DNA of 64,000 nt from Rhodospirillales bacterium. Its GTDB lineage: Bacteria > Pseudomonadota > Alphaproteobacteria > Bin95. The notes under the pieces were generated by a model, which worked only from the letters and a program-made list of their open reading frames with translations, made no database searches and was not told the origin of the DNA. The DNA is taken from contig JAYQLI010000035.1 in the NCBI GenBank assembly GCA_038143065.1, positions 96,001 to 160,000 on the forward strand, read 5' to 3'. Below, in pieces: positions 9,665-16,427 of the stretch. The position numbers and the translations under genes were made by a program. Numbering within the stretch: the first letter of the stretch is position 1; each line of letters starts with the position of its first letter.

Positions 9665-11211
9665 TCAGCGAGTTTTCGTACCCCTCCCCATAATGTATGA
9701 GGGGATTAAAGCCAGCGCCGCTACTACGGCCGTTAACATAAATGTGTCTTGGAAACCTTGTGTTTGTGCTTGCAGAAATACTGTTTGCCCAAGATAACTA
9801 ATTGCACCAGCTGATGACTCAATTGCGGACACACCGGACGCCTGCATTATGTTTACAATGTTAGACAAAGGTCTTGTGCAACTGCATTGTCTGGGGTTTG
9901 GCTCATTGTGATGGTTTGCGCATGATCAGCTGTTCGGCTTTCTAAAAATACCACCATTAGATTAACACCAGTCGCTCCGCCAAAAGTCCTTGCAAAATTT
10001 ATCAAACCTGCTCCCTGGCTTACTTGTTCTGGGCCAAGTGAACGCAGAGCCCCGGTATTTAATGAAGGAATTATCAATGACAAACCAAACCGGTTTACCA
10101 GCGTAAATAAGACAAAGATCCAGTATGGCGTGTTTGTATCTGCCACAGACATCAGAAGGAAGCCGAAGCCAAACCAAAATAAACCGGCCATGATAAGCAG
10201 ATGCGCTGGAAATCTATCTACAAGTCGGCCTGCAGTTGGGAACATGATTACCATCAATATCCCTGCTGGAATTAGAGCAACTCCTGCTTTTGTGGCTGAA
10301 AAGCCCTGGATGTCCTGCATAAAAACAGCAATGGCATAAATTGAGCCAAACATGCCAAAACCAAAAATAATCCCCACCAAAATTGCAGATGCAAATTGAG
10401 GATTTGTAAAAAGGCGGAGGTCTAGCATTGGCCACTTCGCAGTGAGCTGTCTGGCGATGAAAGCCAGCGTTGCTAAAGTACCAATAAAAAGCTCCAAAAT
10501 AATTCTATCGGAAGTCCACCCAAATCGCCTGCCGCTTGCGAGGCCATCAAGAACAAAGCCAAGGGCAAGAGCCATTAGGATCAGGCCAGTCCAGTCAAAA
10601 GGACGTGATGTGCCAGATCGACCAGCTGGCATGAAAGCTCCCCCAGCTACCATTGCGGCAAAGGCAAGAGGCAGAGGTATTAAAAAAACAAACCGCCAGC
10701 TAAGTTCGTCCTTCACAAATCCACCGATGGCAGGTCCAAGTCCCGGGGCCAAAACCACTCCGAGACTAAAAAGCCCCATGGCTGCTCCTCGTCGTTCCGG
10801 TGGAAAGACAGTAAAAATAATTGCCATAGTAAAGGGCTGCATTAATCCTGCACAAAATCCTTGAATGACGCGAGCCAGAATTACGGTTGAGTAATCGACT
10901 GCGGAAAATGCTAGGAATGAGCCTCCTACAAAAATTGCCATTGTTGCGAGAAATACTGTCCTCTGGCCAAAACGCTGTTGTAGCCAAGATGTGAGAAGCA
11001 TAGCTCCAGTCATTGAAGCGAAATATGCAGTTGAAAGCCATTGGGCTTTGTCTTGGCCAATACCAAAGGCCCCCATTACTGCAGGTACAGCTGTATTGAC
11101 GCTGGTAGACGAGAGCACCATACCGATCATTCCAATCAGTCCAGAGCCTGTCATGAGCCATCGCTCGGTCTCGGTAAATGCGGACCAACCTTGGTTTGCC
11201 GTAATAGCCAT
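9665..11211 (-). CDS. DHA2 (EmrB/QacA) MFS efflux transporter, frameshift near 3' end (~9865)
   Basis: Long hydrophobic ORF with ARVIQG, FPPERRGAAMG, GPAIGG, WRFVFL, DLRLF. C-terminal GFQDTF helix lies in ORF 9665..9868. Confidence 0.9.
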
Positions 11212-11252
11212 TAAATTAGAATGAGGGATAGTTGCGTTGCTTGAAGTAACTT

Positions 11253-12449
11253 TTAATTTCTGACGTCAATTTCTACTTCAACCATCATACCAGGAGAGAG
11301 ACGCTTTGGTTGTTTAGTGAACGCAATTTTGACTGGGATCCTTTGAGTGACCTTTGTAAAATTGCCACTTGGGTTTGGGGTTGGTAGAAGTGCAAATCTT
11401 GAAGTTGCCGCAGTTCCTATCTTCTCCACTTTCCCCATGAAGTTGTCGTCTGGATAGGCATCGACAGTAATATGGACAATCTGGTCAACGCTTAGACGGC
11501 GAACTTGTGTCTCTTTAATATTGGCTTCTACCCATACATTCTCAGGATTATGAAGCATTAGCACGCGCCGGCCTGGGCCTACGAATTCACCGTTTTCTAC
11601 GAAAACACGATCTATAATTCCGGGGATTGGTGCCCGAATAGAACGCTGGGCAATAAGTGCTTCTTGCCGAGCCATTCTAGCCATAAGCTCCGCTTCCTTA
11701 TGATCAAGAATAGCCAATTCGCTTTCTATGACCGACAACTCCCCTTTGTCAGCTTCTGCCTCTGCTGCTTCGCCACGTGAAGAGGCAATGTCTGCATCAG
11801 CGCGGCGAAGTTCACTTTCTAGTCGTGAAACTTCTGCCTCAGCTCGGTCTAGGCGAGAACGCGAAATAACGCGTCGATTAAAAAGACTTTGAAATCGATC
11901 AAACTCTTGTTTTGCAAGCTTTAATTCTGCAGCAAGGGCACTTCGCCGAGCTTGTTGTGCCTGAACTTCTGTTGCTCTTGTTTGTACTCTACTGTTTGTT
12001 TGTCGGGTAACCATGTCTGTTCGGGCTGCATACTCGGCCCTCTCGGCCTGAACGCCAGCGAGGGAGGCTTTCAGAGCGTCTAGCTCTAAGGCTTGGACTT
12101 TATTATCCACTTGAGCAAGGAGGGTGCCGGCCTCCACGGTGTCGCCGGACTCTACATTGAGTGCAACTAATAATCCTTCAACACGGCTGCCAACAGTAAT
12201 GTGATCAGTAGTAACTCGAGCGTCGTACTCATAAACGTGAGTCATTCGGCTCATTACCTCACGACCTGCAAAAATCATTGCTGCTACGGCGACAAGTCCA
12301 ATCGCAAAGTAACGCAAAGTTCTTTTTGGTCGGTGTCGTTGTGTTTTATTTGGGGTTGCCGATAGTGTACTTGAGTTAGCGTTATCCGCTGAACTTTGAG
12401 AGCTTGATAACGCATTTGTTTCTGAACCTTTTTCAGTGTCTTGTGCCAT
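11253..12449 (-). CDS. HlyD/EmrA family efflux membrane fusion protein
   Basis: N-terminal TM helix, coiled coil, WVEANIKET, VDAYP, GNFTKVTQRIPVKI, PGMMVEV. Confidence 0.93.
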   Translation of the reverse strand: MAQDTEKGSETNALSSSQSSADNANSSTLSATPNKTQRHRPKRTLRYFAIGLVAVAAMIFAGREVMSRMTHVYEYDARVTTDHITVGSRVEGLLVALNVESGDTVEAGTLLAQVDNKVQALELDALKASLAGVQAERAEYAARTDMVTRQTNSRVQTRATEVQAQQARRSALAAELKLAKQEFDRFQSLFNRRVISRSRLDRAEAEVSRLESELRRADADIASSRGEAAEAEADKGELSVIESELAILDHKEAELMARMARQEALIAQRSIRAPIPGIIDRVFVENGEFVGPGRRVLMLHNPENVWVEANIKETQVRRLSVDQIVHITVDAYPDDNFMGKVEKIGTAATSRFALLPTPNPSGNFTKVTQRIPVKIAFTKQPKRLSPGMMVEVEIDVRN

Positions 12450-12909
12450 CAAGCATCTCCTTTGAGGTGGGGTGTAGAGAGACTTTCAAATCGACTTATC
12501 AATTGTGTAGTGAATTCAATCATTGCATTAACCTGCGCTGGGTCGAGGTCGCCGAGCACTTCTTGCCGAAGTTCAGCCGCAATAGTATCTACTTCTTGGA
12601 ATCGAGCCCGTCCGTGTTTGGTAAGGTGTATTAGGTTGGCTCGGCGGTCATCTGGATTTGGGTTGCGATCAACCAGGCCAGCTTCCTCTAACTGGTCAAT
12701 TTGGCGTACAAGTGTTGCACCTGAAATTCCCGCCCGCGCTGCAAGATCAAGCTGAGTTATTCCATCAACCTTGTCATTTAGGTGCATGAGCAAAATCCAA
12801 CGGGCTTGTGAGAGCCCAAGGGGCGCAATCTGTTGTCTAGTTCAGTCCGCCAGAGTCTTGCGAGAAGTCCAGTTTGTCTGCCCAAATTTGTTGGAGGATT
12901 GCGGGCCAT
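12449..12909 (-). CDS. MarR/SlyA-family transcriptional regulator, frameshift ~12840
   Basis: LGLSQARWILLMHL...ITQLDLA...ATLVRQIDQLEEAGLV...DDRRANLIHLT. N-terminus MARNPPTNLGRQTGLLARLWR is in another frame. First gene of the MarR-EmrA-EmrB operon. Confidence 0.88.
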
Positions 12910-12922
12910 TACAGTTACTCTT

Positions 12923-12979
12923 TTATGATCCTAATTATTAGCTACCTATATGTTAGTATCCTAATAATTAGGGTGCAAT
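12923..12979. promoter_or_regulatory. Putative MarR/SlyA operator array: four TTA-N6-TAA-like boxes at 15-bp period
   Basis: TTATGATCCTAA (12923), TTAGCTACCTAT (12938), TTAGTATCCTAA (12953), TTAGGGTGCAAT (12968). Includes the perfect inverted repeat CCTAATTATTAG/CTAATAATTAGG. Confidence 0.65.
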
Positions 12980-13045
12980 TCAAGGAGGTCAACTCTCGCA
13001 AGCTTATTGTAGCCACTTAGTCGTTAATATGACCGCATCCTGATG

Positions 13046-13086
13046 CCGAGAAGTTTGTATGGCAGCTGCCATCACAAGCATTCCGG
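13046..13086 (-). other. Long imperfect hairpin with 14-bp perfect palindrome in the 3' UTR of the UGSC gene
   Basis: ATGGCAGCTGCCAT (13059-13072) flanked by TTGT/ACAA and CCG/CGG arms. No U-tract. Confidence 0.45.
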
Positions 13087-13098
13087 GAAAAAATTATT

Positions 13099-13623
13099 TC
13101 ATTTATTCCCCGCCTGAATCCTCTCAAGAATTTTTGGCGCTGCTTCGAATGCAAGGGTCTTAAGCTCATCAGCAGTCTTATTTTGGATTGGGTGTGGCGT
13201 CCAAACAATTGCTGGAGCAAAACCCAATGCCTTACCTTGGGCTTCCGCTGCTTGTTGAAACTCCACTGTTGCTGTCGCACAGCCAGGGATCCCACGAACG
13301 TCGAGTTGGTGAATGTCATGCAAACTGCACGACGTACACGATCCTCAATCTGCTAAGGCTTCGACGACAATGTCACAACTTTCAACAATATCTTGCAGTA
13401 TAGATTCTGGTGCCGGTTTAGTATGCGTTGGCTTTTTAAATCTTATTGTTTTAACGCCTGCAGCCTGAATCAAGGGCTCTAGAGCGTCCATAAATTCATC
13501 AGAACGCTCTTTTGAGATAGATAAGAGACCGACAGTTTTTCCTGATATGTCGGGAGGAGGAGGGCGTCTTTCTCTGAGCGAAGAAGCGCTCTCTGCTGTA
13601 GGGTCTCGCATAGCATATGTCAT
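13099..13623 (-). CDS. UGSC-family selenoprotein (174 aa), in-frame TGA at 13345-13347 read as selenocysteine
   Basis: ORFs 13345..13623 and 13099..13323 share a frame: GCC TTA GCA GAT TGA GGA TCG TGT ACG TCG TGC = ALAD-U-GSCTSC, then HD..RGIP..PHP. A SECIS-like hairpin follows. Confidence 0.88.
13315..13333 (-). promoter_or_regulatory. Bacterial SECIS element
   Basis: UGA + 11 nt (GGAUCGUGUAC) + GUCGUGCA-GUU-UGCAUGAC, an 8-bp stem with one G-U pair and an apical GU. Geometry is close to the E. coli fdhF SECIS (UGCAGGUCUGCA apex). Confidence 0.75.
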
Positions 13624-13627
13624 AGGT

Positions 13628-15069
13628 TCAATACTCCTCTAATGCTTGAGTTACCGGTCGAACTTCTGCATTGTTTCGTCCGCCGGTCCAACCACCAATA
13701 ATTGCTGACATCAAAGCTCCAGGCCCCCTGCTCTAACAACCAAAAGTCCGCCTGGATGAAATTTGTCGATCATCCCATTAGAGTCAGAGTACTTTTCTGC
13801 CTGAGCAGGCGTAATTCCAAGAGGGTGACCCGCACCTTCTAATATTTCTGATGTGGGACGCTTGAGAGCCTTATAAAGCCCATCTTCAATCTCTGCTCGG
13901 CCCCAACCATCTTTTCTGAAGATTTCATAGTGGTTAGGAGAAATGACTAGGATTGCATTGCCCCATCGTGCAAGTCGTGGGTGGTTAACGCTCCATAACT
14001 GCATTGCCATAGACTCACAGAGTTCTTCAGCTGTTCTACTTTTCTGGTCAACGAAGCCAGTTACGCCATCAGCATGGAATAGAGTGACCGCTGAAGCACC
14101 ACTGCTAACACCTCTTGCCTGAGCTAGTGGGATCCAATCCTCATCGCCTTCATCCTCCGCAAAGCAAAAAGTATATTTGCCAGGTTGTCCGAGGCACGCT
14201 CTGTCAATTTCTTGCGGACGACCGCCACCAACATTTCTGATAATCAATTGGAATGCACGCCCAATAGTGGCATTTGCTCGATTACCCTGGCCAAGAGCAT
14301 TTCCACCAGAATTCATGCCGATACGGCGTGAAATAGGGCCATTCACCAAGATAAGTGGGCCAGAGAATGCAAGGGTGCAAAGAAGTCCATGCATTGCAAA
14401 CTCTGGCTCAAGCGCTGCTTTCATGGCTCCAAGTAGCACAGGGAAGTATTCGGGGCGGCAGCCTGCCATAACGGCATTAACAGCAGCCTTTTCAACAGTG
14501 CAAGGAACAAGGTTTGGGGGAATTAATCCTATAATCTCGTCAGCTTTTCGGGTTGTACCCGCTAACATTCTTGCCACCCTTAAATCGGTGGGAGGTGTTA
14601 CTGGAAGGCCATCAGTCCAGCCTCGATCGAACGCTACCTCCATGGGATCATTGTCGTCATCGACTTCTATCGCGCGCGAATTAAGTACTATTTCACCTGC
14701 CTTAAGGGCTAGTCTTTCTACTGCTCCAGGGGCAACATTTAGAGCTCCGCAGCCTGGCATATTTTCAGGCATTGAAGCCCCAAGATTATCTATCCCAGTA
14801 ATTTCTCTCCAGTCGTTCTTATTCCAGCCATAGACGCGTGAAGTCTCTGTTGTTTGGTTGAATGCAATAACGGTTGGAACTATTTCAATTCTAAGCCTAT
14901 GACTTTCCAGCAATTCATCATCGTGGCGAGGGTTTAGGCCACGTGGAAACTCCGGTATGTCCTGAGTAATAACTTCAAGATCCAATCCTGCTGCACGCAT
15001 TTCCGCTAATGCAGGGACTGCTAGGCGGCACGTTGGACAATCTTCTTTAACAACCGCGACAAAACGCAT
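13628..15069 (-). CDS. UGSC-associated protein: N-terminal thioredoxin-like CxxC domain fused to a large uncharacterised domain, frameshift in G-run ~13725
   Basis: VKEDCPTC...IEIVPT (Trx-like, cis-Pro), then PGCG, GWTDGLPVTPPT, NAVMAGCRPEY, NRANATIGRA, GQPGKY. The true C-terminus GPGALMSAIIGGW...ALEEY* ends 4 nt before the UGSC start. Confidence 0.8.
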
Positions 15070-15158
15070 TAGCTGTCCTCCTCCAGGCAACGATAGCCCC
15101 AGACGAAATGGAGCGCTACATTGTTAATGTTAACTATCAAGCGAAGCGGATAAGAAAA

Positions 15159-16427
15159 ATGGATTTTGGCTATTCAGATAAGGTGAAGCAGCTACAAGAG
15201 CGTGTTTCGGACTTTATGGCGAGGGAGATTGTTCCTCGCGATAAGGAGTGGCACGAGCTAACTGAATCCGGTGTTTTCCCTCCTGCTTTTTGTGAAGATA
15301 TTAAATCAAAAGCTAAAGCAGAGGGACTTTGGAATTTCTTCTTACCAAATCTTCCCGAAGAAGCTCCAGGTCAAGGCCTTAGCAATCTCGAGTATGCCCC
15401 GCTTGCTGAAATAATGGGTCGTATTTACTGGTCGCCCGAGATGTTCAACTGCAATGCACCGGACACGGGAAATATGGAAGTATTTCACATGTTCGGTACG
15501 CCTGAGCAGAAAGATACCTATCTGAAGCCCCTTTTAGAGGGCGAAATCCGCTCGGCTTTTTGTATGACGGAGCCTGAAGTGGCTTCCTCCGATGCCACGA
15601 ACGTCCAAACGAGAATTGAAAAGGATGGGAATGAATATGTCATAAATGGGCGTAAGTGGTTCATTACTAATGCTGAGCATCCCAACCTTGGCGTGATGAT
15701 AGTTATGGGTAAGACCGATCCGAGTGCAGAGACCCACCGTCAACAGTCACAGGTCATTGTGGATCCCAATACACCAGGTGTTTCTATCCGCAGAAATTTG
15801 CCTGTAATGCATCACATTAGCCCTGAGGGACACTGCGAGGTCGTCTTCGATAATGTCAGAGTACCGACAACTAACATCATTGCCGAAGAGGGTGATGGAT
15901 TCATGATTGCCCAGGCACGCCTAGGTCCGGGGCGGATCCACCACTGCATGCGTACCATAGGTCAGTGTGAGGTGGCTTTGGAGCTTATGATAGAACGTGG
16001 GTTGAACCGGAATACCTTCGGCAAAAGAACTATTGATCACGATACTGTAAGAGAGGCTGTAGCACTGTCGCGCCAAGAGATAGATATGGCTCGGCTCTTG
16101 GTTCTTCGTGCAGCTTGGATGATCGACACAGAAGGGCCGCGTGCCGCTCGCATGGAAGTGTCAAAGATTAAGGTAGTTGCCGCGAGACTTCAGACGACGG
16201 TCGTCAACCGCGCCATGCAAGTATTTGGTGCTATGGGCCTAACGCCTGATACTCCACTTTCATACCTTTGGACTTGGGGTAGGGCACTTCAGTTTATTGA
16301 TGGACCAGACGAAGTGCACTTGCGTACAATTGCTCGTAGCCTTGTCCGAAATCATGAAAAGAATGGTATGAGCGAGGTGATGCCTCACTTCTATCGTGTT
16401 TCAAAGGACTTCGACGAAAGTCGTTAA
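15159..16427 (+). CDS. Acyl-CoA dehydrogenase (ACAD10/11, FadE2-like)
   Basis: FNCNAPDTGNME, SAFCMTEPEVASSDATN, INGRKW, AQARLGPGRIHHCMR, DGPDEVH. Confidence 0.93.
   Translation: MDFGYSDKVKQLQERVSDFMAREIVPRDKEWHELTESGVFPPAFCEDIKSKAKAEGLWNFFLPNLPEEAPGQGLSNLEYAPLAEIMGRIYWSPEMFNCNAPDTGNMEVFHMFGTPEQKDTYLKPLLEGEIRSAFCMTEPEVASSDATNVQTRIEKDGNEYVINGRKWFITNAEHPNLGVMIVMGKTDPSAETHRQQSQVIVDPNTPGVSIRRNLPVMHHISPEGHCEVVFDNVRVPTTNIIAEEGDGFMIAQARLGPGRIHHCMRTIGQCEVALELMIERGLNRNTFGKRTIDHDTVREAVALSRQEIDMARLLVLRAAWMIDTEGPRAARMEVSKIKVVAARLQTTVVNRAMQVFGAMGLTPDTPLSYLWTWGRALQFIDGPDEVHLRTIARSLVRNHEKNGMSEVMPHFYRVSKDFDESR

Follow-up and report, generated by a model that had tools for sequence, protein, structure and literature searches.

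A UGSC selenoprotein and its family-less partner as the probable subunits of one selenium-dependent redox enzyme in a Rhodospirillales bacterium

Two adjacent genes on the minus strand of a Rhodospirillales contig (GenBank assembly GCA_038143065.1, contig JAYQLI010000035.1, positions 96,001 to 160,000; this whole stretch of 64,000 nucleotides is called the window) raise the question of what enzyme is formed by a selenoprotein of the UGSC family and the thioredoxin-fused protein encoded upstream of it. A preliminary description had proposed a minimal enzyme of the glycine/betaine-reductase type. We find that the two genes probably specify a single selenium-dependent thiol/selenol redox enzyme made of two subunits, the large subunit being a family-less core of 350 residues that always lies beside UGSC or is fused to it. 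The locus is an ordinary member of a widespread two-part selenoenzyme, for which the label 'glycine reductase' is too strong. The elements of the gene pair are as follows (window coordinates).

13628..15069, minus strand: partner gene, 480 amino acids (aa) with a missing base restored; apart from noise, neither Pfam nor NCBIfam has a family for it at E ≤ 1
14791..15069, minus strand: thioredoxin-fold domain of the partner, residues 1-93, with CPTC at residues 11-14 (nt 15028-15039)
14746..14757, minus strand: PGCG linker motif of the partner, residues 105-108, containing Cys107
13631..14682, minus strand: core domain of the partner, residues ~130-480 (~350 residues; alignment A1)
13722..13729, minus strand: homopolymer run (plus-strand letters GGCCCCCT), where the window is one base short relative to public contigs
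13634..13639, minus strand: GAGGAG, ribosome-binding site of the selenoprotein gene as read from the sequence, within the end of the partner's corrected frame
13099..13623, minus strand: UGSC-family selenoprotein gene, 174 aa when TGA is translated as U; ATG at 13621-13623, stop TGA at 13099-13101
13345..13347, minus strand: in-frame TGA, read as selenocysteine (Sec, U) 93 in the motif D-U-G-S-C-T-S-C
13315..13333, minus strand: hairpin resembling a selenocysteine insertion sequence (SECIS); stem of 8 bp, loop GUU, beginning 11 nt past the UGA

The downstream gene encodes a full member of the UGSC family, with no difference in profile match, U-G-S-C motif, in-frame TGA or SECIS-like hairpin. 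Pfam PF24696 (UGSC) covered residues 5-169 of the 174 (E 6.5e-36; 124.5 bits at a cut-off of 25), and NCBIfam NF041046, with U written as C, gave 124.1 bits, 0.9 bit short of its cut-off of 125. Every motif that the preliminary description had quoted for the two proteins was found on the minus strand. These include RGIP and TPHPIQN in the selenoprotein, which also has a C-terminal helix, and CPTC, PGCG, GWTDGLPVTPPT, AVMAGCRPEY and GNRANATIGRA in the partner. Position 93 (U or C) and Cys96 are invariant columns in all 31 sequences of the UGSC alignment. Across 301 genomes of the class, TGA occupies the Sec position in 59 of 65 UGSC matches, with Cys or another residue in the other 6. An equally placed hairpin was present in nearly all of 28 folded UGSC genes, some of them with other codons, and RNAalifold on 27 UGSC genes retained 4 base pairs, in 3 of which both sides had changed. 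The genome itself encodes selB (435 bits), selA (496 bits) and a tRNA-Sec detected by ARAGORN. A search of positions 12500-15500 against Rfam returned no family. The stretch of ~40 nt at 13313-13357, which holds the Sec codon, the codons for G-S-C-T-S-C and the hairpin, was the sole match of many metagenome contigs that diverge on both sides; it is a nucleotide-level conserved core common to the paralogues and to other organisms. A metatranscriptome contig that spans the gene junction (13292-14147) gives a weak hint of expression.

Since the mid-2000s, UGSC has been listed as one of the most common selenoproteins in metagenomes from oceans and fresh waters. In the Global Ocean Sampling (GOS) survey of Zhang and Gladyshev (PLoS Genet 2008, PMC2398784, Table 2) it is a major family, with 255 Sec and 21 Cys forms, and a 'UGSC/Unknown_1 fusion' is mentioned there for a supplementary figure. 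In the UGSC sections of a 2022 review and of a 2026 review (PMC13188914) the family still has no function. The literature treats it in catalogues and reviews; the UGSC passages of the three papers just named contain neither a link to GrdB nor a description of the partner family. As to the fold, Zhang and Gladyshev guessed, in the part of their text that deals with UGSC, a thioredoxin-like structure. In contrast, when an AlphaFold2 (AF2) model of a natural UGSC-core fusion was searched with VIA-align, the results for the UGSC part were filled by flavodoxin/Rossmann-like folds. The predicted structure thus shows UGSC as a flavodoxin/Rossmann-like α/β domain, with Sec in a U-G-S-C-x-x-C motif that ends a β-strand.

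The preliminary description gave the partner ~480 residues and an end 4 nt before the selenoprotein start, which holds for the restored frame and fails for the window as assembled: there the open reading frame (ORF) runs for 452 aa from the ATG at 15069 to a stop at 13711-13713, 87 nt ahead of the selenoprotein ATG. One added base in the C-run at 13724-13728 is needed for the ~480-residue form. We compared contigs of four public runs over the gene, three of DNA (each from a different study) and one of a metatranscriptome, and all four carried one extra base behind 13723 (C in the three DNA runs, T in the RNA run). The restored frame ends with a stop at 13628-13630, 4 nt from the selenoprotein ATG. 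Homologue P0005 (97% identical, 480 aa) continues past the window stop as ...RAGGPGALMSAIIGGWT..., and homologues of 474-482 residues share the conserved tail ...GGPGALMSAIIGGWT..., which the window holds in another frame. At the other end, the start ATG (15067-15069) is preceded by a ribosome-binding site, GGAGGAGG. Elsewhere in this assembly Ldh_2, UbiD, GHMP kinase, ETF-QO and a molybdopterin oxidoreductase are each represented by two adjacent ORFs (among loci L022-L025), and selA has an internal TAA stop; the assembly seems to carry homopolymer-type frameshifts. Since several other genes are split in two ORFs in this way, the one-base deletion in the partner gene is most likely an assembly error.

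The partner begins with a domain of thioredoxin-like α/β fold, in which a C-x-x-C starts helix 1 and a cis-Pro loop is present. The thioredoxin-like CPTC head, the PGCG linker and the large domain without a family were all present as first described. None of the Pfam thioredoxin models reached its threshold on the N-terminal domain. The classical thioredoxin motif is WCGPC. Here the motif is C-P-T-C, and the domain, unlike free thioredoxin, is fused to the 350-residue core through the conserved PGCG linker. Among 18 homologues fused to thioredoxin or Redoxin domains, the first Cys and the cis-Pro are kept in all 18, the second Cys in 14 and the PGCG Cys in 17.

In the core, an alignment of 62 sequences has D153, P156, A196, A202, G203, G244 and R271 as invariant residues, and C204, R264, N266, C302, E305 and W312 at 90% or above. 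C204 and C302 (the latter in the context YTF-C-FAE) are the only two conserved cysteines (each at least 90% in A1), and neither is universal. At E ≤ 1e-3, with library clusters drawn at 50% identity, the core family counts 5426 cluster representatives. Databases name the partner homologues only 'thioredoxin family protein' or 'hypothetical protein', and the core probably corresponds to what Zhang and Gladyshev (2008) called 'Unknown_1'. AF2 modelled the partner from 62 sequences with high scores (predicted local distance difference test, pLDDT, 95.9; predicted template-modelling score, pTM, 0.91), and a search of the ESM Atlas returned only the family itself. Across lineages the core is fused to thioredoxin-like, Redoxin/AhpC-TSA or UGSC domains. 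Forms of ~710 residues contain no Pfam domain and two matched stretches, and look like tandem cores. Seven longer fusion proteins were rejected as a clue to the substrate: most are single records in which an unrelated gene (IclR, LysR, a pyridoxal phosphate enzyme) is attached, and they are probably gene-calling artefacts. One partial homologue, P0324, carries the precomputed Pfam accession PF27431, which may be a newer entry touching the core family.

The pairing of the two genes is very strong, and they proved to be conserved neighbours. This genome has 5 UGSC copies and 7 core copies, and all 5 UGSC copies adjoin a core or are fused to one. UGSC occurs in 33 of the 301 genomes and the core in 32 of those 33, the exception being a 1.7-kb contig. 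For 60 of the 65 UGSC matches a core match lies within 300 nt on the same strand, with the core upstream in 34 pairs and downstream in 26. The five unpaired matches are accounted for by the ends of contigs, by a pair whose halves lie on two contigs and by a fused copy of this genome that was missed by the second search. About 50 full-length natural fusions of UGSC and core were found, and the AF2 model of one of them is compact (pLDDT 93.1, pTM 0.93). One paralogous operon of the genome combines UGSC, two core paralogues and a thioredoxin-reductase-like flavoprotein. In that operon (L023, G000:C35:1733000-1752000) the order is UGSC, core A, core B, flavoprotein, and it adjoins genes for CofC, a fused radical-SAM CofG/H-like protein and luciferase-like monooxygenase domains, an F420-biosynthesis-like cluster in an alphaproteobacterium.

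What kind of chemistry could the pair perform? The GrdB pattern given in the preliminary description was accurate: a true GrdB read from an alphaproteobacterial genome, with GrdE adjoining, has the Sec region ...ILTST-U-GTCTRC...AGLP...IPHPLGD. The likeness claimed for the C-terminal half of the selenoprotein was borne out as well. We compared a UGSC profile (A2, 31 sequences) with a GrdB-family profile (A5, 23 selenoproteins, namely one true GrdB and PrdB-like proteins of the class) using hhalign, and obtained a probability of 94.3% and an E-value of 9.6e-8 over 71 columns, a pairwise value that is partly due to the C-x-x-C shared once U is written as C. The two Sec positions coincided, GIP was matched with G(I/L)P, and PHP with (P/F)(H/E)(P/L). 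Against a single sequence the probability was 54%. The models TIGR01917 (11.7 bits, cut-off 602.2) and GrdF NF040794 (10.6 bits, cut-off 800) matched weakly, over the same residues as in hhalign, and PF07355 did not match the UGSC protein at E ≤ 1. UGSC and protein B have in common a Sec that ends a β-strand, the motif U-G-(S/T)-C-T-x-C, a helix that follows it, G-(I/L)-P and P-H-P. The comparison shows UGSC to be distantly related to the C-terminal module of GrdB/PrdB that carries Sec. About 280 N-terminal residues of GrdB have no counterpart in the 174-aa UGSC protein, and GrdB/PrdB, like UGSC in the pair, needs a second, larger subunit. Two more selenoproteins of the GrdB/PrdB family (PF07355) are encoded in the genome (L056, G000:C35:2092875-2093273; L057, G000:C35:1681335-1681730). 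Both have the motif V/N-U-P-x-C and are split at TGA in standard translation; similar genes occur in 28 of the 301 genomes.

Glycine reductase is fed by thioredoxin. By analogy with Stickland protein B, thioredoxin is likely to be the reductant of the UGSC pair, which may work like protein B. The candidate active-site residues are U93 and C96 of UGSC and C11, C107, D153, C204, R271, C302 and E305 of the partner. In the mechanism that we propose, the core would bind a small, probably anionic, substrate through the invariant Asp153, Arg271 and Glu305 and the near-invariant Cys204 and Cys302. The U93 selenolate would attack the substrate or an enzyme-bound intermediate, and Cys96 would resolve the adduct, leaving a selenenyl-sulfide. 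Electrons would pass from NAD(P)H through thioredoxin reductase and the CPTC domain to the U93-C96 selenenyl-sulfide. Overall this would be a thioredoxin-driven reduction as carried out by Stickland protein B, with a different substrate-binding subunit.

Taken further, the pair is conceivably the thioredoxin-driven equivalent, in aerobic bacteria, of the Stickland protein-B reductases; we put this forward tentatively. The core would replace the pyruvoyl subunit GrdE/PrdA as the substrate-activating half, and in marine and freshwater bacteria small organic acids or osmolytes would be cleaved at a C-N, C-S or C-O bond that differs from paralogue to paralogue. In a sub-variant, Cys302 would be a self-processing site. 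If the proposal is true, one of the most abundant orphan selenoproteins would have a catabolic role, and if the chemistry is reductive bond cleavage, Stickland-type selenium chemistry would extend to aerobic bacteria. Three findings make the orphan UGSC part of a defined two-protein enzyme that is open to expression and screening: its tie to one large unnamed family, the repeated fusion of that family to thioredoxin-type domains, and the relation of the Sec module to GrdB/PrdB.

Several results weigh against a Sec-dependent redox enzyme of the protein-B type, beginning with the pairwise nature of the GrdB comparison noted above. The likeness to Stickland protein B is confined to the small subunit: hhalign found no likeness of the partner to GrdE/PrdA (probability 0.3%) or to full-length GrdB (probability <1%). 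A search of the genome (97.6% complete) for two families, GrdA (PF04723) and GrdE/PrdA (PF09338), found neither; the PF09338 model does detect a real GrdE. Because the partner is unlike GrdE/PrdA, and GrdA and GrdE were not found, UGSC is GrdB-like in one module only and the pair is not a glycine reductase. The description as a minimal glycine/betaine-reductase-type enzyme was accordingly right about the Sec module and, since only that module is GrdB-like, overstated for the whole. Profile searches of the PDB with both the UGSC and the partner family gave nothing better than E 0.4. Of the 35 partner copies that adjoin UGSC genes, 29 keep C204 and 28 keep C302. The five loci of the genome have no neighbour in common besides UGSC and core, and offer no clue to the substrate. 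Finally, all 36 sequences of a fused clade (alignment A3) have lost both U-x-x-C and C204 while keeping D153, R271 and E305, so the core may have a chemistry that is independent of the selenol.

Some members of this clade bear the name Puniceispirillum. The genome studied here also encodes a fused UGSC-core protein of this kind (L025:8352-9998, minus strand, contig C36; 549 aa), with G-G-T-A in place of U-G-S-C and Met in place of Cys204; judged by its sequence, it is a redox-dead version of the pair. A linked loss of U-x-x-C and C204 as a general rule was dropped, as L036 and L055 keep Sec with Ala at position 204.

The fused clade also speaks for a different view of the pair, which we regard as unlikely: that the core works without redox chemistry, for example as a hydro-lyase or isomerase of an organic acid, and that UGSC is structural or regulatory, its selenol switching or protecting the enzyme while the thioredoxin domain keeps it reduced. 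The clade retains the core without U/C-x-x-C and C204, and the strictly invariant residues of the partner are Asp, Arg and Glu, not Cys. Moreover, the sole structural matches point to a hydro-lyase. With two independent multi-domain models, the top Foldseek matches for the core were chains of class I (Fe-S) fumarate hydratase (α/N-terminal domain, PF05681; PDB 7xky, 6unz), which in archaea is a two-subunit enzyme, just as the UGSC pair has two parts. These matches are very weak. For 7xky_A the E-value was 5.4e-4 (prob 0.80, TMq 0.22, TMt 0.32), the second model gave 2.4e-3, and the fumarate hydratase matches had template-modelling (TM) scores of 0.17-0.32 at a root-mean-square deviation of 12-18 Å. 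The three-Cys [4Fe-4S] site of the hydratase is not evident in the core, which has only two conserved Cys, and the profiles are not similar: when hhalign compared that of the partner with the class I fumarate hydratase encoded in this genome, the probability was 0.06%. A non-redox role also sits poorly with the retention of Sec, a costly and usually catalytic residue, in 59 of 65 copies, and with the predominance of Sec over Cys forms in Table 2 of the GOS survey (PMC2398784).

A general antioxidant or disulfide-reducing system seems to us improbable. Here UGSC would be catalytic, as a peroxidase, a reductase of protein or low-molecular-weight disulfides or a reductase of the methionine-sulfoxide type, and the partner would be a scaffold. 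The fusions of the core to Redoxin/AhpC-TSA and thioredoxin domains fit such a role, as does U-x-x-C, a motif type common in thiol oxidoreductases, and the UGSC passages of two papers class the family with thioredoxin-like redox proteins (PMC2398784, PMC13188914). However, a highly conserved partner of 350 residues with a constellation of Asp, Arg and Glu exceeds what a scaffold requires, and the number of paralogues, 5 to 7 per genome, points to several substrates and not to a single housekeeping role.

It is very improbable that the pair is a true cut-down glycine, sarcosine, betaine or D-proline reductase with the same chemistry. The Sec, GIP and PHP motifs do align with those of GrdB, but this possibility is largely refuted, as GrdA and GrdE/PrdA were not found in the genome. 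A partner that is not GrdE-like, the TIGR01917 score far below its cut-off and the failure of PF07355 to match also speak against it. Least credible of all is a genuine TGA stop, or a decaying pseudogene pair with a real frameshift and a meaningless second ORF half: the frameshift in the window copy of the upstream gene would suit it, but all four public runs have the intact frame, PF24696 spans the two halves of the selenoprotein in a single domain match (residues 5-169), and the hairpin and the Sec machinery are present.

The flanking genes are those named in the preliminary description, an acyl-CoA dehydrogenase gene in divergent orientation and a MarR efflux operon downstream.

15108..16427, plus strand: acyl-CoA dehydrogenase gene, divergent (Pfam Acyl-CoA_dh_N/M/1)
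9853..12793, minus strand: MarR, HlyD and MFS genes, downstream (Pfam)

The four other UGSC loci of the genome, which are paralogous, showed no such MarR, HlyD and MFS neighbours. Because no other neighbour is common to the five loci, we regard the acyl-CoA dehydrogenase and the MarR efflux genes as local context. A scan for promoters and terminators gave fewer sites than shuffled sequence, with a single promoter-like site at 12964-12992 on the minus strand. The AT-rich inverted repeats beside it at 12930-12985 (CCTAATTATTAG ... CCTAATAATTAGG), which lie upstream of the MarR gene, are probably the MarR operator. Farther out, ~3 kb from the module, lie a gene for a small protein of the DsrE/DsrF type (PF13686; 17966-18373, minus strand) and one for a dienelactone hydrolase.

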